DNA of 32,000 nucleotides. Origin: an uncultured Lentisphaeria bacterium. GTDB taxonomy: Bacteria; Verrucomicrobiota; Lentisphaeria; JABSQK01; JAJFLO01. Shown here in pieces: positions 5,844 through 21,145 of the stretch (positions are counted from its first letter, which is position 1; each line of letters starts with the position of its first letter). Both the position numbers and the translations under genes were made by a program. The stretch is from NCBI GenBank assembly GCA_951812855.1, contig OX638337.1:630001-662000 (forward strand), written 5' to 3'. Under the pieces are notes generated by a model. The model saw only the letters and a list, made by a program, of their open reading frames with translations. It was not told where the DNA came from and ran no database searches.

Positions 5844-6095
5844 TCAAATTGGTTTTGAAAGACTCTCTAATATATCCTGACCTTCCAATTCTCCCAATTG
5901 AAATATTAACTCTTCTAACACTACTGAGGGATCATCAGAATCCTTAATATTAAACTCTGCAATGTGGTCGCCTAAAGCCAATAAATATTCGGCAAATGTT
6001 TCTATTGTTAATGAGTTATCATTAATTAAGTCAGAGGCAAATATCAACATATCGGCATTAAGGTTTTTTAAAATGAAGGTTTTAGATAGTTTCAT
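5844..6095 (-). CDS. Hypothetical small acidic protein
   Basis: An 83-aa ORF with no recognisable motif. It lies between aroC and tRNA-Thr. Confidence 0.35.
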   Translation of the reverse strand: MKLSKTFILKNLNADMLIFASDLINDNSLTIETFAEYLLALGDHIAEFNIKDSDDPSVVLEELIFQLGELEGQDILESLSKPI

Positions 6096-6179
6096 TCTAT
6101 TCAGTGCATAAAGGGCTTCAAGAAAACGTAAATTATTAAGATAATTTTTATTGAAAAATCAGATTGGGAGAGAGTAATA

Positions 6180-6255
6180 TGGAGCCAGCGATCGGACTCG
6201 AACCGATGACCTGTGCATTACAAGTGCACTGCTCTACCAACTGAGCTATGCTGGC
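6180..6255 (-). tRNA. tRNA-Thr (anticodon UGU)
   Basis: The reverse complement is GCCAGCATAGCTCAGTTGGTAGAGCAGTGCACTTGTAATGCACAGGTCATCGGTTCGAGTCCGATCGCTGGCTCCA. It folds as a 76-nt cloverleaf with anticodon loop CTTGTAA and an encoded CCA. There is one A7-C66 mismatch. Confidence 0.9.
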
Positions 6256-6575
6256 CAAAATCAAATAAATAAATACACTTTAGATAAATGTTTGAGATAC
6301 TATAAAATTGGTAAATGATTAATTCAAAATAGTTTTTTGATTAATCCTTAATCAATTGCTCTATGTCAGTAAAGAAAAATTAATTTCAGACAGGCATGCT
6401 TTCTGCCACCCTAAATCTAATCGTGCCACGATGTTACAATTAAGCCCGGCCACCCCGTTTATTAAGTGTCTATGTTCTATTATATTTAAGCAAGTTACAA
6501 CTCAAAACATATCATCGGCACCTCTTGTGCTGTCAGCTAATAGAAATTAAAAATCTTACATAAAGGAATATAATA

Positions 6576-9152
6576 ATGAATGCCAATAATTATACAGAAA
6601 AATCACAGGAAGCATTAAGTGATGCTTATAATTTAGCTGTTAAGTACAATCATCAGTCTTTGCTGCCCATTCATCTTATGCATGTATTAGTAACACAAGA
6701 AGGAGGTACCGTTAAAAAAATAATTAATAATATCATCACTATTTCATCTGAATTAGAGCAAGATATTCTGGATTCAATCAAAAAAATTCCTCAGGTAACA
6801 GGCCCGGGAACTGGAAATGTTGCGGCATCACGTGAATTTTCTAAAATAAACATAGATGCAAATGAAATTGCCAAAGCACATAAAGATGAATTTATCAGTG
6901 TTGAACATTTGTTTGCAGCTTTACTGAAATGTGACGAAGACTGTAGGCTTATTGCTCAAAAACACGGTATTAATGATGAGAACTTTCTGGAAGGGTTAAA
7001 GTCTGTTCGGGGGAATAGTCGTATTACATCACAAAATCCGGAAACTGCCTTTCAAGCCCTGGAAAAGTATACGTGTGATTTAACTCAGGCAGCTCGACAT
7101 CATAAGTTAGATCCTGTAATTGGTCGGGACAGCGAGATTCGCAGAGTCGTTCAAATACTATCTCGCAGAACTAAAAATAACCCTGTATTGATCGGAGACC
7201 CCGGTGTTGGAAAGACCGCTATTGTTGAGGGGCTTGCCCTGCGAATTCTTAAAAACGACATTCCGGAAGGATTAAAGAATAAAAGGCTTTTAGCACTTGA
7301 TATGGGTGCCCTTATTGCAGGAGCAAAATATAGAGGAGAATTTGAGGAACGCCTAAAAGCGGTTCTTAAAGAGATTACTGCCGCTGACGGAAAAATTATT
7401 CTATTTATCGATGAACTGCATACTGTTGTTGGTGCTGGTGCTGCTGAGGGTGCAATGGATGCTGGAAACCTCCTTAAGCCAATGTTGGCAAGGGGCGAAA
7501 TCAAGTGTATTGGAGCAACCACTTTAAATGAATACCGAAAATATATTGAAAAAGACAAGGCATTAGAGCGTCGTTTCCAAACCGTATCGGTTGATCAGCC
7601 TACGGTTGAGGATACAATCTCAATCTTGCGAGGATTATGCGAGCGATATGAGGTACATCATGGCGTAACAATTCGTGATTCAGCATTAGTCAGTGCTGCA
7701 ATCTTGTCAGATCGCTACATAAACGATCGTTTTCTGCCTGACAAAGCGATTGATTTAGTTGATGAAGCAGCAGCAAAACTACGGACAGAAATAGATAGCA
7801 AGCCAATTGAAATTGACGAAATTGTACGTAGAAAAATGCAATTAGAAATAGAAACAGCCGGATTAAAAAAAGAAAAAGATACGCTTTCTCATAAACGTTT
7901 AAGACTTCTGGAAAAAGAACTGGAAGACGTGAATTCAGATTTAGATAAACTTGAAAGTAAATGGGCCGATGAAAAAGATATTATTAGCAGCAATCAGTCA
8001 ATCAGAGAAGCACTTGAAACTGCCAAAATAAGTCTATCAGAAGCTGAACGTAATTATGATCTAAATAAAGTTGCAGAATTAACACATGGCACAATACCAA
8101 ACCTGGAACAGCAATTGGAGAAAGCAGAAAATCAGTTAAACGAATCAAGCGGAGAACAAATGCTTAAACAGGAAGTTGATGAAAATGACATTGCTGAAGT
8201 TGTAAGTCGATGGACTCATATACCTGTAACAAAATTACTCCGGGGCGAACGTGAAAAGTTATTAAATTTAAGTGATTTACTAAAAAAGCGTGTCATTTCG
8301 CAAGACAACGCGGTTCAAGCAGTTTCCGATGCCATTATACGTTCCCGGGCTGGCATGAGTGACCCGAACCGGCCTATAGGCAGTTTCTTGTTCTCAGGCC
8401 CTACCGGAGTTGGGAAAACTGAATTGGCCAAGGCATTAACAAGTGTCTTATTTAATGATGAACACTTACTTATCCGAATTGATATGTCTGAATATATGGA
8501 AAAACACAGTGTTGCACGACTTATCGGTGCTCCTCCCGGATACATTGGTCATGATGAAGGTGGGCAGCTGACAGAAGCGGTGCGACGTCGTCCATATGCT
8601 GCAATACTCTTCGACGAAATTGAAAAAGCTCATTCAGATGTTTCTAATATACTTCTGCAAATTCTGGATGAGGGACGGTTAACCGATTCACATGGTCATA
8701 GTGTTGATTTTAAAAATACAGTCATCATTATGACATCGAATATTGGCAGTCAAATTTTAACTGAAAATACTTTAGATTTATCGGAAAAAGAAACACTGAT
8801 TTTTAAGGAATTACAAAATCATTTTAGACCTGAGTTTCTTAACCGACTTGAAGATATTATAATATTCAACCCACTGTCCAGGGATGATATTTTTGATATC
8901 ATTGATATTCAGCTGGCTAACCTTAACAATCGATTACCAGCCGAGCACAATATCAGTGTAAAATTATCAACTGAGGCCAAAAATCAGATCGCGAATGAAG
9001 GATATGATGCCGTTTACGGTGCTCGACCTTTGAAAAGAGTTATCACAAAGCGAATCGAAACTCAACTCGCAAAAATGATCATTTCAGATAAATTGAAGAA
9101 ATCCGGAACACTTACGGTTACCTGCAAGAATGGAAATTTTGAATTTAACTAA
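6576..9152 (+). CDS. clpB: ATP-dependent chaperone ClpB
   Basis: 858 aa. It has two AAA+ modules (GDPGVGKT and GPTGVGKT Walker A motifs), a long coiled-coil middle domain, and a Clp N-domain. Confidence 0.97.
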
Positions 9153-12820: not shown

Positions 12821-12979
12821 ATGAGATTAGAATTCGACTATTTTCAAAATCAAATCTATGAATTTAGGTATCTGCTCTCTAATCTTAATTCGGTTCAAGA
12901 TGACGATTTAAGTCATAATGAATATTCTTATATTAAATTAATCAGTATTGCCTTAAAGTGTATAAACAAGAAATTTTGA
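12821..12979 (+). CDS. Possible small ORF (52 aa), unannotated
   Basis: It starts at an ATG and reads MRLEFDYFQNQIYEFRYLLSNLNSVQDDDLSHNEYSYIKLISIALKCINKKF*. It is below the track cutoff and has no known motif. Confidence 0.25.
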   Translation: MRLEFDYFQNQIYEFRYLLSNLNSVQDDDLSHNEYSYIKLISIALKCINKKF

Positions 12980-13005
12980 CAGTTCGAGTAGGATTAAATA
13001 AAATT

Positions 13006-13428
13006 ATGCTGCCGCTAAGGAAAAAAAAGTTTAGTGAATTACGTAAAGCTCATATCTTATTTGGACAAAAAGGTGAAAAAATAGCCTGTGATCTATTACA
13101 AAATCTCGGACTGACTATACTGCATCGTAATTTTAGAGGCCCTCACGGTGAGATCGATATCATTGCACGCGATCAAGCAGTTTTATGTATTGTTGAGGTA
13201 AAAACTCGACACCGATCACCATTTTCCCGACCTGCAGATGCCGTAACATTGAAAAAGAAACAAAACATCGTAAAAACTGCAAACAGATATCTGCGACAAC
13301 TGGGGCGTCCATCAATAATTTATCGATTTGATATAGTGGAAGTTATTTTTAATCAAAGAAGACTGATCGATATAAGATATTGGCCCAACGAGTTTTCAGC
13401 CTCAGAATTAAATCAGGGCGTATATTAA
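13006..13428 (+). CDS. yraN: YraN-family (UPF0102) endonuclease-like protein
   Basis: It shows the GEKIACDLLQNLGLTILHRNFRGPHGEIDIIARDQAVLCIVEVKTR signature. I prefer the ATG at 13006 over the track's GTG at 12958, because typical YraN proteins are about 120-140 aa. Confidence 0.85.
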   Translation: MLPLRKKKFSELRKAHILFGQKGEKIACDLLQNLGLTILHRNFRGPHGEIDIIARDQAVLCIVEVKTRHRSPFSRPADAVTLKKKQNIVKTANRYLRQLGRPSIIYRFDIVEVIFNQRRLIDIRYWPNEFSASELNQGVY

Positions 13429-13759: not shown

Positions 13760-14077
13760 TTGATTTTGATATATTTCAAATACGATGAAAAAAGAGAGCG
13801 ATTTGAAACTGGAGAATTAGACCTGGGCTTACATCAGCGAAAATTCAAGACTGGTACAGTCATTAAAATGTATTCTTATGATCTTCCGTCAGGATCACGT
13901 TCAGTAATTTCCCGTGTTCTTAACCAAAGTATTGATGAATATTTATTCAATCCGGCACTGCCAATCTTAACTGTTGATAAACCAGAACGCTATCCAGGCG
14001 AGAAGATGTTCAAAGCTGGATCGAAAGTCAGAAAACAGATAGTGGTAAGAACGGGCAGAGAGGATGATTTTCATTGA
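13760..14077 (+). CDS. Hypothetical ORF abutting the island (possibly a junction artefact)
   Basis: 105 aa with a TTG start and host-like AT-rich composition. Its TGA stop overlaps the TTG start of the methyltransferase (TTGA at 14074-14077). No motif was recognised. Confidence 0.3.
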   Translation: MILIYFKYDEKRERFETGELDLGLHQRKFKTGTVIKMYSYDLPSGSRSVISRVLNQSIDEYLFNPALPILTVDKPERYPGEKMFKAGSKVRKQIVVRTGREDDFH

Positions 14078-16824
14078 ACACCGTTGAAATAGAAGAAGCG
14101 ATATCCGCGTTAGCGGCAGAGCCGTTCGACGCGGCGGAATTCCCCTATGCGTTTCTGGAAGCGTTTGACAATAAGGCCACCACCATCAAGCGGTTGCGGT
14201 ACGGCAATGCCAACAAATCGGATATCGATGGCGGGGTTTTACAGCGCAACAACATCCATTTGGCTGTATGCAAGCAGGATAAAGTCTCCGACACCCTGGT
14301 GTTGCTCAAAGACAGTCCGGCCACAATAAAAGGCAAGACAAAATTCATACTGGCAACAGACGGCATTGATTTTGAAGCAGAAGACATAACCTCTGGTGAC
14401 ACCCTTGCTTGTAAATACAGTGATTTTCCCGACCGCTTTGGTTTTTTCCTTCCTCTTGCAGGCATTAGCACGGTCAGGCAAATCCGTGAGAACTCTGTTG
14501 ATATTCGAGCTGCCAGCCGCTTAAACAAATTGTATGTCGAGTTGCTAAGGAATAACCCTGATTGGGGTACCTCCGAACACCGCCATGATATGAACCACTT
14601 TATGGCCCGGCTAATTTTCTGTTTCTTCGCTGAAGATACCGACATATTCAACGGCGATAATTTGTTTACCGCAACCATCGAACAAATGAGTGCAAAAGAT
14701 TCGTCGAATACCCATGAGGTAATCGGTGAAATCTTTCGATCGATGAACGTTAAAATCACTGATCGAAAGAAAAAAGTATTGCGTTCATGGGCGAATGGTT
14801 TTCCCTACGTAAATGGCGGGCTTTTTTCAGCAGATACAGAAATACCGGAATTTACCAGAATTGCACGTTCCTATCTCTTACACGTTGGAAGGCTGGATTG
14901 GCAAAAAATCAACCCCGATATTTTCGGTTCGATGATACAGGCGGTGGCAGACGATGAAGAACGCGGCAGTCTCGGCATGCACTACACCAGCGTTCCCAAT
15001 ATTTTAAAGGTTCTCAATCCACTGTTTTTGGATGATCTTCATCGTCAACTGAAGCAGGCAGGAAATAACGCCAGAAAATTATTAAACCTGCGGCGGCGGA
15101 TATCGACTATTCGTGTATTTGATCCCGCCTGTGGGTCGGGTAATTTTCTTGTCATTGCGTATAAAAAACTGCGTGAAATCGAAGCTGAAATAAATGATCG
15201 GCGCGGTGAAAAAGGTCGGTCAACGGATATTCCGCTTACCAACTTCAGGGGCATTGAGCTGCGGGATTTTCCCGCCGAGATTGCACGGCTGGCGTTGATT
15301 ATAGCGCAGTACCAATGCGACTTGCGATATCTCGGTCAGAAATTAGCACTGGCTGAATTCTTGCCGTTAGACAGGGAAAATTGGATTACTTCAGGCAATG
15401 CTCTGGAAATCGATTGGCTTTCTATTTGTCCATCTACTGGAACGTCAGTAAAAATGATGGGTGATGACTTATTTAATAAACCAGTCGATCAGGCAGAGGT
15501 AGAATTTGAAAACAAAGGCGGTGAAACCTATATCTGTGGTAACCCTCCTTACCTGGGAAGTACATGGCAGTCTAAAGAGCAAAAAGCCGATTTAAAACAT
15601 ATTTTCGACGGTAAAACTAAAAACTGGAAATCGCTGGATTATGTTTCCGGCTGGTTCATGAAGGCAGCAGAGTATGGGCGTCAAACAAACGCTGTAAGTG
15701 CGTTTGTTGCGACAAATTCTATATGTCAGGGACAACACGTACCGATTTTGTGGCCGCTCATTTTCAGCACCGGTCATAAAATCGACTTCGCCCACACCTC
15801 CTTCAAATGGGCAAACCTCGCCAGCCACAATGCCGGCGTGACGGTGGCAATTATTGGGATTTCCAACAGACCCCGGAAGTACCGAAGCCTTTACTCAATC
15901 TCAGAGGAAGGAAATCCGATAGAAAAAAGAACCGGGAATATCAATGCTTACCTGATTTCAGGTGCAAATGTCATTGTTGAGAAGTCATCCAGACCTGTAT
16001 GCGAATTATCTGAAATGAAATTTGGCAACAAGCCTGTTGATGGCGGCAACCTCCTTTTGTCGAAGGCGGAGGTTTCTGAACTGGGTCTGTCTAAAAAACA
16101 ACATCGTAAATTTATCCGTCGCATAGTTGGCTCTGCGGAATTTATAAAAGGCCTGCAACGTTATTGCCTTTGGATCGAGGATCAACATTTAGATGAGGCA
16201 ATGGCTATAGAGCCGATTCAAAAACGCATAGAGGCTGTTCGAGAAAAACGCCTGGCCAGCCGAGATAAAAGTGCGAACGATATGGCGAAGCGTTCCCACC
16301 AGATGCGTGAGATGAATATTGGGAAAAGCCATTCTATCGTCGTTCCGCGTGTCAGCTCGGAAAACCGCGATTATCTGCCCTGCGGCCTGCTTCCGTCGGG
16401 AACAATCGTTTCGGACAGCTGTTTTGCACTCTATGACGCACCGCTCTGGAACATGGCAATAATAGCCTCCCGCCTGCATCTGGTTTGGATTGGTACGGTA
16501 TGCGGCAGGCTTGGAACCGGCTATAGGTATTCCAACACGCTTGGCTGGAACACTTTTCCAATCCCAAAATTGACTGAAAAGAACAAAGAAGATTTAGAAC
16601 GCTGCGCCGAGGATATACTCCTGGCACGGGAAGCACATTTTCCCGCCACCATCGCCGATCTCTATAAACCGGAAAAAATGCCGGAAAACCTCCGCCGCAA
16701 CCATGAGCAAAATGATGAAGTGTTAGAACGCATCTATATCGGCCGCCGCTTCCGCAACGACACCGAACGCCTCGAAAAGCTCTTCGAACTCTACACCCGT
16801 ATGACGAAGAAGGGGGCGGCATGA
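14074..16824 (+). CDS. MmeI/PglX-like gamma-class N6-adenine DNA methyltransferase with a C-terminal TRD
   Basis: 916 aa. Motif I is VFDPACGSGNFLV (15121-15147). Motif IV is GNPPYLG (NPPY at 15541-15552). Blocks I recall from the MmeI family: LIFCFFAEDTDIF, FPYVNGGLF, LDWQKINPDIFGSMIQ, GMHYTSVPNILKVLNPLFLDDL, KFGNKPVDGGNLLL, RYCLWI, VPRVSSENRDYLP, GRLGTGYRYSNTLGWNTFP, LYKPEKMPENLRRNHEQND. The start is TTG, with GAGAGGA 9-10 nt upstream. Confidence 0.9.
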   Translation: MNTVEIEEAISALAAEPFDAAEFPYAFLEAFDNKATTIKRLRYGNANKSDIDGGVLQRNNIHLAVCKQDKVSDTLVLLKDSPATIKGKTKFILATDGIDFEAEDITSGDTLACKYSDFPDRFGFFLPLAGISTVRQIRENSVDIRAASRLNKLYVELLRNNPDWGTSEHRHDMNHFMARLIFCFFAEDTDIFNGDNLFTATIEQMSAKDSSNTHEVIGEIFRSMNVKITDRKKKVLRSWANGFPYVNGGLFSADTEIPEFTRIARSYLLHVGRLDWQKINPDIFGSMIQAVADDEERGSLGMHYTSVPNILKVLNPLFLDDLHRQLKQAGNNARKLLNLRRRISTIRVFDPACGSGNFLVIAYKKLREIEAEINDRRGEKGRSTDIPLTNFRGIELRDFPAEIARLALIIAQYQCDLRYLGQKLALAEFLPLDRENWITSGNALEIDWLSICPSTGTSVKMMGDDLFNKPVDQAEVEFENKGGETYICGNPPYLGSTWQSKEQKADLKHIFDGKTKNWKSLDYVSGWFMKAAEYGRQTNAVSAFVATNSICQGQHVPILWPLIFSTGHKIDFAHTSFKWANLASHNAGVTVAIIGISNRPRKYRSLYSISEEGNPIEKRTGNINAYLISGANVIVEKSSRPVCELSEMKFGNKPVDGGNLLLSKAEVSELGLSKKQHRKFIRRIVGSAEFIKGLQRYCLWIEDQHLDEAMAIEPIQKRIEAVREKRLASRDKSANDMAKRSHQMREMNIGKSHSIVVPRVSSENRDYLPCGLLPSGTIVSDSCFALYDAPLWNMAIIASRLHLVWIGTVCGRLGTGYRYSNTLGWNTFPIPKLTEKNKEDLERCAEDILLAREAHFPATIADLYKPEKMPENLRRNHEQNDEVLERIYIGRRFRNDTERLEKLFELYTRMTKKGAA

Positions 16825-17225
16825 GCCAGTTCGCACCCATCCCCTATGCCGCGCTCAATTCGCGCCAGAAGGAAAACTACAACTTCCACAAGGTCGCTGC
16901 GCGTATGGCCGATTACGGCTTCAACTGCCTGCGGCTGACCGACGACTGGCAGGGGGCGGATTTCATCGCCTGCCACATCGACGGCGAGACCTTTCTGAAG
17001 GTGCAGCTCAAGGGGCGTCTGGTCATCAACCGCAAGTATCAGGGGAAGGGTATCCACGTCGCCTTCATCGATCGGGAGCGGGTGTTTGTCTATCCGCATG
17101 ATGAGATGGTCAGGCAAGCTGAAGGGCACATCAACAACACCGCGTCGTGGCGTGATCGCGGTGCTTATACGTGGCCATCAACGCCCGCCTGGGCAATCAA
17201 TTTTTTAGAAAAGTTCAGGATTTGA
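16821..17225 (+). CDS. Small PD-(D/E)xK-like (YraN/restriction-endonuclease-like) protein, putative
   Basis: 134 aa. Its ATG overlaps the methyltransferase stop (ATGA). The segment GADFIACHIDGETFLKVQLKGR (D47 at 16959-16961, QLK at 17004-17012) mirrors the YraN core GEIDIIARDQAVLCIVEVKTR found in this same window. Q replaces the usual E. Confidence 0.6.
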   Translation: MSQFAPIPYAALNSRQKENYNFHKVAARMADYGFNCLRLTDDWQGADFIACHIDGETFLKVQLKGRLVINRKYQGKGIHVAFIDRERVFVYPHDEMVRQAEGHINNTASWRDRGAYTWPSTPAWAINFLEKFRI

Positions 17226-17227
17226 CC

Positions 17228-19273
17228 ATGACCAATAATATTCCCTCCGTTTCCGTCACCTATGCCCGAAACGGCAGCTCCACCAAATCGAACGAGCTTG
17301 GGATGCGCCCGATGCAGGAGCTTGCGTATGAGAAGCGGGGCGAGCAGTATCTTCTGATAAAGTCTCCTCCCGCTTCTGGTAAAAGCCGTGCACTGATGTT
17401 CATCGCACTCGACAAGCTGCACAATCAAAACGTGGATAAAGTCATTATAGCCGTCCCTGAAAAGTTCATTGGTTTCAGCTTTGCCAATGAGCCGCTCTCT
17501 CAGTATGGCTTTTATTGGGATTGGAAAGTCGAGCCAAAGTGGAATTTGTGTAATGCACCGGGAGAAGATGGCGGCAAAGTAAACTCTGTTAAAGCTTTTC
17601 TCGACAGCGAGGATCGCGTTCTGGTCGCGACCCATGCGACCTTCCGCTTTGCCATGGACAAGTTCGGGATTGAAGCTTTTGATGATTGCCTGATCGCAGT
17701 GGACGAGTTCCATCATGTCAGCACCAACCCGGATAACAAACTCGGCAATCACCTCGGTCAGCTTATTGAACGTGACAAGGTGCATATTGTCGCTATGACG
17801 GGCTCATATTTCCGGGGCGACGCCGAAGCGGTCTTGTCCGCTCAGGACGAAGCTGAATTTGAGACGGTAATATATACCTATTACGAACAGCTCAATGGTT
17901 ATGACTGCCTGAAAACCCTGGATATAGGGTATTACTTCTATTCAGGTTCTTATGCAGACAGTATTTTGGATGTTCTGGATGCCACTGAGAAAACCATTAT
18001 TCATATTCCCAATGTCAATTCCAGAGAGAGTACAAAGGATAAACATAAAGAAGTCGAACATATTATTGAAGCACTCGGTTCATGGAAAGGTGTGGATGAG
18101 AATACAGGCTTTCATTTAGTGAAAACCCCCGATGGCACACTGCTTCGTATCGCTGATCTGGTAGACGATGAGCCCGCAAGGCGAGACAAGGTTTCGGCGG
18201 CTGTCAAGATGCCTTCAGAAAAAAATAATAGAGACTATATTGATATCATTATTGCCCTCGGCATGGCCAAAGAAGGCTTTGATTGGATATGGTGTGAGCA
18301 CGTTCTTACAATAGGCTACAGGGCAAGCCTGACTGAAATAATACAAATCATAGGCCGTGCCACTCGCGATGCTAAAGGTAAAACCCACGCCCGTTTTACC
18401 AACCTGATTGCAGAGCCGGATGCCTCTGAAGAAGCTGTAACAGATGCTGTGAATGATACGCTGAAAGCCATTGCTGCTTCCCTGTTGATGGAGCAGGTGC
18501 TCGCTCCGAAGTTCAACTTTACCCCGAAAGTGTCAACCAGCAGCCCCGGGGAAGGGTTTGACTACGGCGAAAATGGTTATGATCCAAGCAGGGAAAATGT
18601 CGGTTTCAATAGCGACACTGGCCAATTCCAAATTGAGATTAAGGGGCTTGTAGAGCCTAAGTCTGAAAATGCACAACGAATTGTCCACGAAGATTTGGAC
18701 GAGGTCATTACCGCCTTTGTTCAGGATAAGACCGCAATAGAACGCGGCCTGTTTGACGATGAGATCGTACCCGAAGAACTGACACAGCTTCGTATGGGTA
18801 AGATCGTCAAAAATAAATATCCTGAGCTTGATGAAGGTGATCAGGAAGCAGTTCGACAATATGCAATAGCCGCTTTTAATCTGACTCAAAAAGCCAAGGA
18901 AGTGGTAAATGATTCGGCAGAGTGTCAAGCTGCAGGCAATACAGCACTGATCGACGGCATTCGCAAATATGCTATGGATGTGCGTGAGCTCGATATCGAT
19001 CTGATAGATCGAATCAATCCGTTTGGAGAAGCCTACGCAATCCTTTCAAAGGCTATGAGTAAAGAAAGCCTGAAACAGGTTGCCGCCGTTATTTCTGCTA
19101 AACGAGTAAATCTTACGCCTGAAGACGCAAGGGATTTAGCCAAACGAGCGCTGAAGTTTAAGATTGAGCGCAAACGTTTGCCTGATATTAATTCTCAAGA
19201 CCCATGGGAAAAAAGAATGGCCGAAGGGGTTGCTTACTTAGCCAGAATGAAGGCGGAGGCATCTAATGGTTAA
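17228..19273 (+). CDS. SF2 DEAD/DEAH-box (ResIII-like) helicase/translocase with a long C-terminal extension
   Basis: 681 aa from the ATG at 17228, with AGGA 8 nt upstream. The track's 17171 start would overlap the previous ORF. Motif I is SPPASGKS (GKS at 17378-17386). Motif II is DEFH (17702-17713). Motif III is MTGS. Motif VI is QIIGRATR (18344-18367). Confidence 0.9.
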   Translation: MTNNIPSVSVTYARNGSSTKSNELGMRPMQELAYEKRGEQYLLIKSPPASGKSRALMFIALDKLHNQNVDKVIIAVPEKFIGFSFANEPLSQYGFYWDWKVEPKWNLCNAPGEDGGKVNSVKAFLDSEDRVLVATHATFRFAMDKFGIEAFDDCLIAVDEFHHVSTNPDNKLGNHLGQLIERDKVHIVAMTGSYFRGDAEAVLSAQDEAEFETVIYTYYEQLNGYDCLKTLDIGYYFYSGSYADSILDVLDATEKTIIHIPNVNSRESTKDKHKEVEHIIEALGSWKGVDENTGFHLVKTPDGTLLRIADLVDDEPARRDKVSAAVKMPSEKNNRDYIDIIIALGMAKEGFDWIWCEHVLTIGYRASLTEIIQIIGRATRDAKGKTHARFTNLIAEPDASEEAVTDAVNDTLKAIAASLLMEQVLAPKFNFTPKVSTSSPGEGFDYGENGYDPSRENVGFNSDTGQFQIEIKGLVEPKSENAQRIVHEDLDEVITAFVQDKTAIERGLFDDEIVPEELTQLRMGKIVKNKYPELDEGDQEAVRQYAIAAFNLTQKAKEVVNDSAECQAAGNTALIDGIRKYAMDVRELDIDLIDRINPFGEAYAILSKAMSKESLKQVAAVISAKRVNLTPEDARDLAKRALKFKIERKRLPDINSQDPWEKRMAEGVAYLARMKAEASNG

Positions 19274-20480
19274 GTCTACTTTTACGCAAGAAGACGATAA
19301 GCTGTTAGCAGAGCTTGGTGTTGTAGTTGAGAAAAAAAAGAAAGCCGCCATGACTCCACGGCAAGAGCGAATTATTGCAGGCTTTGAAGATATTCAGCAC
19401 TTTGTCGAGGAGTACGACCGGCCACCATTGCACGGTGAAAACAGAGACGTTTTCGAGCGTTTATACGCAACAAGGCTGGATCAAATTCGCACTCAAGACG
19501 AATCTCGTCAGTTAATCAAAGCGTTGGACTATCAAGGATTACTGTCTGATAACCTGAAAATAGCTGAACCTGACGCTGAATATGAAACCGATGACGAGCT
19601 TCTGGCTGCTCTTGGTGTCGAAAGACCAACAAAAGAAGGTGATATTGCCTTTCTTAGGCATGTTAAATCGCAAGCTGAAAGAAAAGCGGCGGAAGAAATA
19701 GCCAGCCGAACCCCTTGTAAAGACTTTGAAAAGTTCAAACCACTTTTCGATAAAGTGCAAAGTGATTTAAAACATGGTCTGGTAGAGGCAAAGTTGCTTG
19801 AAGATCAAAAAGGGCAATCTGTGATGGCCCAGATAAACCAGGGCGACTGGTTTATCGTAAACGGGCAAAAAGCCTACGTTGCAAAATTAAGTGATCGGCG
19901 TATCCATGGTTTTGATAACAACGACTATCGCTTACGGGTCATCTACGATAACGGAACCGAAAGTGACCTGCTGCTGCGGTCGTTGCAAAAAGCACTCTAT
20001 GAAGATGAGGCAGGTAGAAGGATCATCTCACGTTCTGCCGGGCCGCTATTTGATGATGTTGCAGAGGAAGAAGATTTGGCGAGTGGGACAATTTATGTGC
20101 TTAGAAGCAAATCCAATCATCCCGTGATCGAAGAGAATAGAGCGGTGATTCATAAAATCGGAATTACCGGGGGAGACGTAAAAACGAGAGTATCAAACGC
20201 CAAACTTGATCCTACCTATCTTATGGCAGAGGTTGAAATCGTCGCTACTTACGATCTGTTCAATATCAGTCGAGGTAAACTGGAAAATCTACTTCACAGG
20301 TTTTTTGAGAGTGCCAGGCTCGAAATAGAAGTGCCAGATAGATTTGGTAATCCTGTAATCCCACAAGAGTGGTTTCTGGTGCCTCTGCCTGTTATTAATG
20401 AAGTGGTAGAAAAAATCAAAGACGGGAGTATTGCCGGCTATAAATATGACCGTAAAAAGGCAATGCTTGTTAAGGACTAA
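19266..20480 (+). CDS. T5orf172/MUG113 (GIY-YIG superfamily-like) domain protein
   Basis: 404 aa. The C-terminal block, about aa 274-385 (nt 20085-20420), reads GTIYVLRSKSNHP..HKIGITGGDVKTRVSN..KLENLLHRFF..PQEWFLVPL. It matches the T5orf172 pattern as I recall it. The N-terminal half is unassigned and carries a duplicated DDxLLAxLGV motif. Confidence 0.8.
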   Translation: MVKSTFTQEDDKLLAELGVVVEKKKKAAMTPRQERIIAGFEDIQHFVEEYDRPPLHGENRDVFERLYATRLDQIRTQDESRQLIKALDYQGLLSDNLKIAEPDAEYETDDELLAALGVERPTKEGDIAFLRHVKSQAERKAAEEIASRTPCKDFEKFKPLFDKVQSDLKHGLVEAKLLEDQKGQSVMAQINQGDWFIVNGQKAYVAKLSDRRIHGFDNNDYRLRVIYDNGTESDLLLRSLQKALYEDEAGRRIISRSAGPLFDDVAEEEDLASGTIYVLRSKSNHPVIEENRAVIHKIGITGGDVKTRVSNAKLDPTYLMAEVEIVATYDLFNISRGKLENLLHRFFESARLEIEVPDRFGNPVIPQEWFLVPLPVINEVVEKIKDGSIAGYKYDRKKAMLVKD

Positions 20481-20553
20481 GGCTCGTTTGTTTGTTATTG
20501 ATTGAGGATGTAATGAACTGCAGCATTTTGAATAAGTTTGATCAGGTTTCAGA

Positions 20554-21060: not shown

Positions 21061-21145
<85 letters not shown>

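Follow-up and report, generated by a model that had tools for sequence, protein, structure and literature searches.

An MmeI-family N6-adenine methyltransferase and recognition protein of 916 residues, encoded in a 32,000-nucleotide stretch of DNA from an uncultured Lentisphaeria bacterium (GenBank assembly GCA_951812855.1, contig OX638337.1, positions 630,001 to 662,000 of the forward strand; the whole stretch is called the window here), is confirmed by sequence alignment to lack, in its N-terminal domain, the catalytic residues of the MmeI PD-ExK endonuclease domain. Its sequence and gene neighborhood place it in the nuclease-motif-less branch of MmeI homologs, the YeeA/DnmA type, and published descriptions allow it to be set beside the YeeA-YeeB-YeeC proteins of Bacillus subtilis. 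The initial annotation of this DNA, which had proposed that the nuclease residues were lost, was correct on that point, but the class that it had come upon was already published in 2009. Taken as a whole, the locus probably encodes a system in which site recognition by a nuclease-less MmeI-type protein is coupled to a helicase and to a GIY-YIG nuclease that cuts in trans.

Loss of the MmeI catalytic residues

Window positions 14074-14520, which the initial annotation had singled out, are the first 149 codons of the methyltransferase gene (Table 1), and the translation quoted there agrees exactly with the window. The TTG start codon at 14074 has GAGGA upstream and is the right one, because more than 100 homologs open with the identical residues M-N-A-V-E-I-E-E. 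Pfam domains for all five parts of an MmeI protein are recognized, and both the methyltransferase, with its motifs FDPACGSGNF and NPPY, and the target recognition domain (TRD) are intact, as had been claimed; so is the C-terminal domain. Among PDB sequences, the best phmmer match to the full protein is MmeI (5HR4, E-value 7e-143). The alignment starts only at query residue 90 and MmeI residue 109, and phmmer with the N-terminal 169 residues alone does not find MmeI among the PDB sequences.

As a reference we used a set of 113 MmeI-type N-terminal domains, in which D70, E80, K82, Q94, and D115 are invariant and E25 and E51 nearly so. Over the central part of the catalytic site, the 5HR4 sequence reads ..SRGFVD70LFWPGILLIE80MK82SRG.., in agreement with the block ..VDLFWPG.LLIEMKSRG.. 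given in the initial annotation. Relatives of the 916-residue protein were represented by 32 diverse sequences reaching down to 40% identity and by a further set of 74 sequences. Profile-profile alignment of the relatives with the MmeI-type set by hhalign is collinear at 96.5% probability and sets G54, A64, and C66 opposite MmeI D70, E80, and K82, although local confidence in that pairing is low. An alignment-independent test, which looks for column pairs i and i+2 holding one of D, E, Q, or S and then K at 70% conservation or more, retrieves E80-x-K82 from the MmeI set; at the same threshold, it returns no such conserved pair anywhere in the N-terminal domain in either alignment of relatives (32 and 74 sequences).

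Among the relatives, positions 51 to 95 hold no conserved acidic residue. The initial annotation had read V-C-K in place of a catalytic E-x-K; the lysine of that triplet, K67, is variable, with A, P, or S usual at its position, and the sole conserved lysine of the domain is K88. The histidine H62 in the hairpin is invariant, and D96 pairs with MmeI D115, a residue invariant in the MmeI-type set. When the D, E, and K positions were scored for conservation in both sets of relatives, they proved not to be conserved. A conserved D together with an ExK, the finding that would have spoken against the loss, was absent from the alignments, so the observation of lost catalytic residues stands. As aligned, the N-terminal domain is left without any MmeI PD-ExK catalytic residue, which makes DNA cleavage by PD-ExK chemistry impossible.

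A class of proteins with these properties is on record. Morgan et al. (2009), whose inclusion criterion was a PD-ExK motif aligned with MmeI D70, E80, and K82, described a second set of homologs that lack PD-ExK and are "invariably" neighbored by a DEAD helicase resembling YeeB and a GIY-YIG protein resembling YeeC. In their proposal, specificity and protective methylation come from the MmeI-like subunit, and the N-terminal domain of this subunit makes contact with a helicase and an endonuclease that are subunits of their own (PMC2731913). Since this account covers the same class and makes the same proposal of effectors acting in trans, the observation and the interpretation given in the initial annotation independently reproduce a published description. 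In B. subtilis, an active methyltransferase, YeeA (DnmA), generates N6-methyladenine at GACGAG, and yeeB and yeeC lie directly downstream of dnmA (PMC7261158); the order dnmA-yeeB-yeeC is conserved across species (PMC9973331). Earlier work, as reported in PMC7261158, found YeeA to be without endonuclease activity under the assay conditions used for the MmeI family.

Origin and conservation of the N-terminal domain

The initial annotation had described the N-terminal domain as a dead copy of the MmeI nuclease domain. Two parts of that description hold, namely the absence of catalytic residues and the homology of residues 89-165 to MmeI; against it, residues 1-88 show no significant profile match, and the domain is not decaying. 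Judged from these comparisons, an origin as a dead copy is only half shown. The two halves of the domain behave very differently in hhalign: residues 89-165 match MmeI 108-176 at 97.6% probability (E-value 4.8e-12), whereas no significant match to MmeI 1-107 is obtained with residues 1-88 (probability 0.9%, E-value 0.064), the only match of the N-half being 14 columns long, FPYAFLEAFG to PFLIDFFEVFG.

An AlphaFold (AF2) model of the domain, with a predicted local distance difference test score (pLDDT) of 87.8, has the order three helices (including 23-30 and 35-43), a hairpin (54-57/61-65), two helices, strands at 91-95, 99-104, and 110-114, and further helices. This secondary structure matches the layout of helices followed by a hairpin that had been read from the sequence. 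The predicted hairpin falls where MmeI strands 2 and 3 are expected, and helix 35-43 falls where MmeI strand 1 is reported. The MmeI crystal model 5HR4 covers residues 156-906 only, with residues 1-155 missing (PMC4833311). A Foldseek search of the PDB with the N-domain model returned no match at an E-value of 0.001 or below and no nuclease, the top entries being tRNA-synthetase domains at a template-modeling (TM) score of about 0.26. The sole Foldseek match in BFVD is an 868-residue phage adenine methyltransferase (E-value 4e-8, TMq 0.65), a protein that tblastn did not find in a collection of phage sequences.

These results leave appreciable, if minority, room for a different history, in which descent from the MmeI endonuclease domain is limited to residues 89-165, and the first 88 or so residues, an unrelated segment, have taken the place of the catalytic half. 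The gap in hhalign probability between the two halves, with a match of just 14 columns in the first, argues for such a replacement, as do the phmmer alignment to MmeI that begins only at residue 90, the failure of the N-terminal domain alone to match MmeI, and the lack of any PD-(D/E)xK structure in the Foldseek results. Also in its favor are the predicted helix at 35-43, where the reported MmeI strand beta-1 carries E51 (PMC2731913), and the wording of Morgan et al., according to whom the group "substitutes a domain" (PMC2731913). Continuity of the whole domain, on the other hand, is suggested by the collinear whole-domain alignment, in which the weak N-terminal match and the hairpin both lie at the expected places, and by the order of elements past the first helices, which is identical (hairpin, helices, three strands, helix). 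Pfam MmeI_N alone also matches residues 1-84, at an E-value of 8e-8 and a score exceeding its gathering cut-off; the model positions covered, 1-102, are those to which MmeI 11-104 is matched too. But the match of both N-halves to this model is not independent evidence, because the model may stem from both types of sequence. Replacement of the N-half would be compatible with the same mechanism of effectors acting in trans.

Whatever its ancestry, the domain is well conserved. Across 120 homologs, residues 1-88 have a mean pairwise identity of 0.71 and residues 89-165 one of 0.78; the methyltransferase domain reaches 0.81, and the TRD has the lowest value, 0.62. F23, H62, G97, A102, D143, A146, and L150 stay unchanged in relatives with as little as 40% overall identity. 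The high identity and the invariant residues together indicate a domain that is not decaying and that has a function of its own. On this pattern of conservation, the N-terminal domain is repurposed rather than decaying and is under strong purifying selection.

Operon structure and distribution

The methyltransferase gene opens a series of four translationally coupled genes, followed by those for a 134-residue protein, a helicase, and a T5orf172 protein. The methyltransferase stop codon overlaps the start of the 134-residue gene in the sequence ATGA (16821-16824), 2 nucleotides separate the stop of that gene from the helicase start codon, and the helicase gene overlaps the gene for the 404-residue T5orf172 protein by 8 nucleotides. 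The initial annotation had held that a dependence on effectors in trans fits the three downstream genes; all three are indeed coupled, and their products include a helicase and a T5orf172/GIY-YIG protein. The helicase start agrees with the ENA record, and the helicase motifs read ..SPPASGKSR.. (GKS, Walker A), ..VDEFHH.. (DEFH), and ..QIIGRATRD.. (QxxGRxxR).

Homologs of the methyltransferase form at least 8000 clusters. The best 120, with the self-match excluded, show 71-78% identity over the full 916 residues, and their named sources are Alphaproteobacteria, Gammaproteobacteria, Nitrosomonas, and Cyclobacterium (Bacteroidota). Full-length identity at this level across phyla is unusually high and implies that the spread was horizontal and recent. 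A related methyltransferase was examined in 51 loci from other species, and helicase and T5orf172 genes come after it whenever the contig extends far enough; the order methyltransferase, helicase, T5orf172 is seen also in loci L002-L006. The related loci sit among genes for defense and mobile elements, including relaxases, OLD/UvrD, Mrr, ArdA, and toxin-antitoxin pairs.

A more distant homolog was observed in locus L087, a Ralstonia "phage" record (ON170331.1, unverified and labeled as an inovirus), where positions 5950-8613 encode an 887-residue protein of YeeA type at 40% identity, also without D...ExK. No same-strand helicase open reading frame (ORF) of 100 residues or more follows it within the roughly 1.3 kb of locus sequence that remain.

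Table 1. Coordinates of the operon, of the domains and motifs of its first product, and of the adjacent tRNA gene, in window positions
Feature	Position	Strand	Evidence or remark
MmeI-family N6-adenine methyltransferase/recognition protein, YeeA/DnmA type, 916 residues	14074..16824	+	TTG start; five MmeI Pfam domains
N-terminal domain, residues 1-165, MmeI_N type without PD-ExK	14074..14568	+	Pfam MmeI_N, residues 1-159, E-value 2.7e-33
Beta-hairpin, residues 54-66, GVLQRNNIHLAVC, aligning with the MmeI D70...E80-x-K82 strands	14233..14271	+	hhalign (low local confidence), AF2
C-terminal half of N-terminal domain, residues 89-165, homologous to MmeI 108-176	14338..14568	+	hhalign 97.6%, E-value 4.8e-12
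Helical spacer domain, residues 171-251	14584..14826	+	Pfam MmeI_hel, E-value 3.6e-26
Gamma-class N6-adenine methyltransferase domain, residues 327-607	15052..15894	+	Pfam MmeI_Mtase, E-value 4.4e-115
Motif I, FDPACGSGNF, residue 349	15118-15147	+	
Motif IV, NPPY, residue 490	15541-15552	+	
Target recognition domain, residues 630-833	15961..16572	+	Pfam MmeI_TRD, E-value 3.6e-89; most variable part
C-terminal helical domain, residues 835-912	16576..16809	+	Pfam MmeI_C, E-value 1.3e-17
134-residue protein, predicted PD-(D/E)xK fold, optional accessory gene in the methyltransferase-helicase junction	16821..17225	+	AF2 pLDDT 93.3, Foldseek
Superfamily 2 (SF2) DExH helicase, YeeB type, 681 residues	17228..19273	+	Weak Pfam DEAD, ResIII, Helicase_C; PHROG DNA helicase, E-value 1.9e-9
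Protein with C-terminal T5orf172/MUG113 domain (GIY-YIG superfamily), YeeC type, 404 residues	19266..20480	+	Pfam MUG113, E-value 1e-14, and T5orf172, E-value 3.4e-11; residues 274-384
tRNA-Leu	21061-21145	-	About 0.6 kb past the operon end, at the right edge

The operon (window 14000-20500) has a G+C content of 43-53%, against 32-40% in its flanks and 39% in the low-G+C host genome. A search for direct repeats of an attachment site around this island found none, and no integrase was found at it. The operon is probably an old, horizontally acquired island. Genes flanking it are of housekeeping kinds (ClpB, an S8 peptidase, YraN, an M18 peptidase, and capsule genes), and the flanks hold no second methyltransferase. 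The YraN/UPF0102 gene (12958-13428, plus strand), some 650 bp upstream of the operon, itself encodes a small protein of PD-(D/E)xK type, with the motif GEIDIIA...VEVKTR; it looks like a housekeeping gene of the host, unrelated to the operon. An ORF of 105 codons at 13760-14077 (plus strand), with a TTG start and a 4-nucleotide overlap with the start of the methyltransferase gene, was considered as a further component and rejected: no family matches it, none of 86 related loci has a homolog, the ENA record does not call it, and it is probably not a gene.

A small gene at the methyltransferase-helicase junction

The second gene of the operon encodes a protein of 134 residues with no match in Pfam, NCBIfam, PHROG, or PADLOC, and none of its 2796 homolog clusters contains a Pfam domain. 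In Foldseek, its AF2 model retrieves Hjc resolvases, the homing endonuclease I-Ssp6803I, the nuclease domain of SPARDA, and RecU, with a probability of 1.0, E-values of about 4e-4, and TM scores of 0.4-0.5. Four residues, E18, D47, Q62, and K64, are invariant. The PD-(D/E)xK pattern is an alpha-beta-beta-beta-alpha-beta core with Glu in helix 1, Asp in strand 2, and (D/E)-x-K in strand 3; compared with it, the protein matches Hjc and I-Ssp6803I in modeled fold and has invariant E18, D47, and K64, while the second acidic position is taken by the invariant glutamine Q62. We predict on this basis a small protein of PD-(D/E)xK fold.

The association of this gene with operons of YeeA type is frequent and loose. 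Among 80 species-level loci with a homolog of the 134-residue protein, 52 place the gene between a YeeA-type methyltransferase and a helicase, and in the loci set it usually ends exactly 6 nucleotides before the helicase start. In the other 28, all three system genes (methyltransferase, helicase, and T5orf172) are missing from the vicinity, and the idea that the gene is exclusive to YeeA-type operons was rejected on that count. All of the ten such loci that were inspected lie in unrelated surroundings, with neighbors that include DctM, a multicopper oxidase, CcmF, RuvB, and a transposase; loci given for the free-standing gene are L014, L025, L049, L070-L079, L081, L082, and L084-L086. The gene looks mobile or free-standing. 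Conversely, a Cyclobacterium locus is without it, the three-gene form of the operon is seen in L002, and other related loci carry different cargo at the same junction (7167-9430 in L003, 7240-9052 in L004 and L005), namely a protein of 253 or 273 residues of no known function, RhuM, and an RHH-ParE toxin-antitoxin pair. The junction between methyltransferase and helicase thus behaves as a cargo slot, and the placement counts together with the alternative cargo make the 134-residue gene a frequent, optional, and non-exclusive passenger of it.

It is unlikely, in our estimate, that the 134-residue protein is instead a dedicated fourth subunit, a nuclease that would act in trans with the GIY-YIG protein or in its place, restoring the double-strand cleavage lost from the N-terminal domain in a four-gene variant of YeeABC. 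A related alternative would be a selfish gene resembling a homing endonuclease and targeting the junction, and the gene may also be a defense gene in its own right. The protein was also considered as a split-off MmeI nuclease core, a proposal rejected because hhalign against the N-terminal domains of both MmeI type and YeeA type gives probabilities of 1% or less. The 134-residue gene and the cargo-slot behavior of its junction are the only mildly new element of the locus.

Proposed function and alternatives

What the sequences show for this locus is how the domains are arranged, that the catalytic residues are gone, how strongly the protein is conserved, and that the four genes are linked and translationally coupled; we infer that the 916-residue protein depends on effectors acting in trans. 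By analogy with MmeI and DnmA, the methyltransferase domain and TRD would recognize an asymmetric site and methylate one adenine on one strand. The non-catalytic N-terminal domain, in the place occupied by the PD-ExK endonuclease domain in MmeI, would most likely serve as an adaptor through which recognition of a site without modification engages the DExH helicase and the T5orf172/GIY-YIG protein that are transcribed with it. These two partners would supply ATP-dependent translocation and, presumably, cleavage in trans, and the outcome would be a restriction system like Type I or Type ISP but with modification of a single strand.

Several results weigh against this proposal. Residues 1-88 give no significant profile match to MmeI, and the N-domain model finds no nuclease among PDB structures, as described above. 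In B. subtilis, plasmid transformation is nearly equal in the wild type and in a dnmA deletion strain, with no restriction seen, and the deletion causes no growth defect (PMC7261158). The same experiments favor an alternative in which the 916-residue protein works in practice as an orphan or regulatory methyltransferase beside downstream genes that have ceased to restrict DNA, with an N-terminal domain that modulates DNA binding or localization; in keeping with it, DnmA affects promoter activity in B. subtilis (PMC7261158), and the system of that species appears, by these published results, to be regulatory or inactive. For the Lentisphaeria locus we consider this quite improbable, in view of helicase and T5orf172 genes that are intact, tightly coupled, and kept with the methyltransferase across many species, of the higher-G+C island that the locus forms, of the defense and mobile-element genes that surround related loci, and of the Vibrio yeeAB locus, which mediates resistance to some phages (bioRxiv 10.1101/2021.05.05.442762). 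Least credible of all is a nuclease with a non-canonical site built from D50, H62, D96, E103, and D143, for although these residues are invariant or nearly so and D96 lies opposite the invariant MmeI D115, the domain has no [DEQS]-x-K pair, no conserved lysine but K88, and no nuclease among its structural matches, YeeA was inactive in the endonuclease assay cited above, and a protein-protein interface explains the conservation equally well.

The practical value of recognizing this nuclease-less class lies in annotation. The PADLOC model PDLC03598, "REase_MTase_IIG" (Type IIG restriction enzyme-methyltransferase), matches the methyltransferase end to end with an E-value of about 1e-295, so that automatic annotation of defense systems would call a protein without nuclease motif a Type IIG restriction enzyme, while relatives carry the plain name "class I SAM-dependent DNA methyltransferase" in their source records. 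Both labels hide the missing nuclease site and the operon with helicase and GIY-YIG protein, in a YeeA-YeeB-YeeC class that is very widespread, as the number of methyltransferase homolog clusters attests. With a well-delimited locus, a strongly conserved N-terminal domain, and an optional small partner of predicted PD-(D/E)xK fold, the system is a reasonable candidate for biochemical study.

Comparison with known systems

MmeI and other Type IIL enzymes (NmeAIII, RpaB5I; PDB 5HR4), a class whose members cut unaided about 20/18 nucleotides from the site, share with the 916-residue protein the five-domain layout, nearly the same length (919 residues for MmeI), the methyltransferase motifs, the TRD, and the C-terminal bundle, and the C-terminal half of the N-terminal domain is homologous to that of MmeI. 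Unlike them, it has no counterparts of D70, E80, K82, E25, and E51, and it is encoded in a four-gene operon, whereas genes of MmeI type stand alone without conserved neighbors.

BREX PglX and DISARM DrmMI resemble it in having a related gamma-class adenine methyltransferase core and partner proteins instead of a fused nuclease. Both identities were considered and rejected. For PglX, the NCBIfam matches are local and score 24-28 bits against cut-offs of 400-900, and the locus annotation shows no Brx partners, the neighbors being ClpB, peptidases, YraN, and capsule genes. For DrmMI, the PADLOC match is partial (residues 469-888, E-value 1e-26), and the locus has no Drm partner or DUF1998 protein.

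Type I and Type ISP systems (EcoKI and EcoR124I; LlaGI and LlaBIII) likewise combine a methyltransferase-recognition module with an SF2 helicase and a nuclease, and ATP-driven translocation from an unmethylated site is the likely logic here as well. The present system differs from them in having no separate S subunit, the TRD being fused as in MmeI, in the single-strand modification expected of it, and in a nuclease that would be a separate GIY-YIG/T5orf172 protein rather than a PD-(D/E)xK or Mrr domain fused to the helicase. Accessory genes between subunit genes are known from Type I loci, and the junction cargo described here resembles them.

The closest likeness is to the YeeA/DnmA systems. 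As in these, the leading gene encodes an MmeI homolog that lacks PD-ExK and differs from MmeI in its first ~100 residues but resembles it elsewhere; genes for a DEAD/DExH SF2 helicase and then a GIY-YIG/T5orf172 protein come after it on the same strand, with no second methyltransferase nearby. Unlike the published descriptions, in which the helicase gene comes first, the Lentisphaeria operon has the gene for the predicted PD-(D/E)xK-fold protein of 134 residues inserted after the methyltransferase gene, which moves the helicase and T5orf172 genes to the second and third downstream positions, and its setting, an island of higher G+C content in a low-G+C host, is a further difference.

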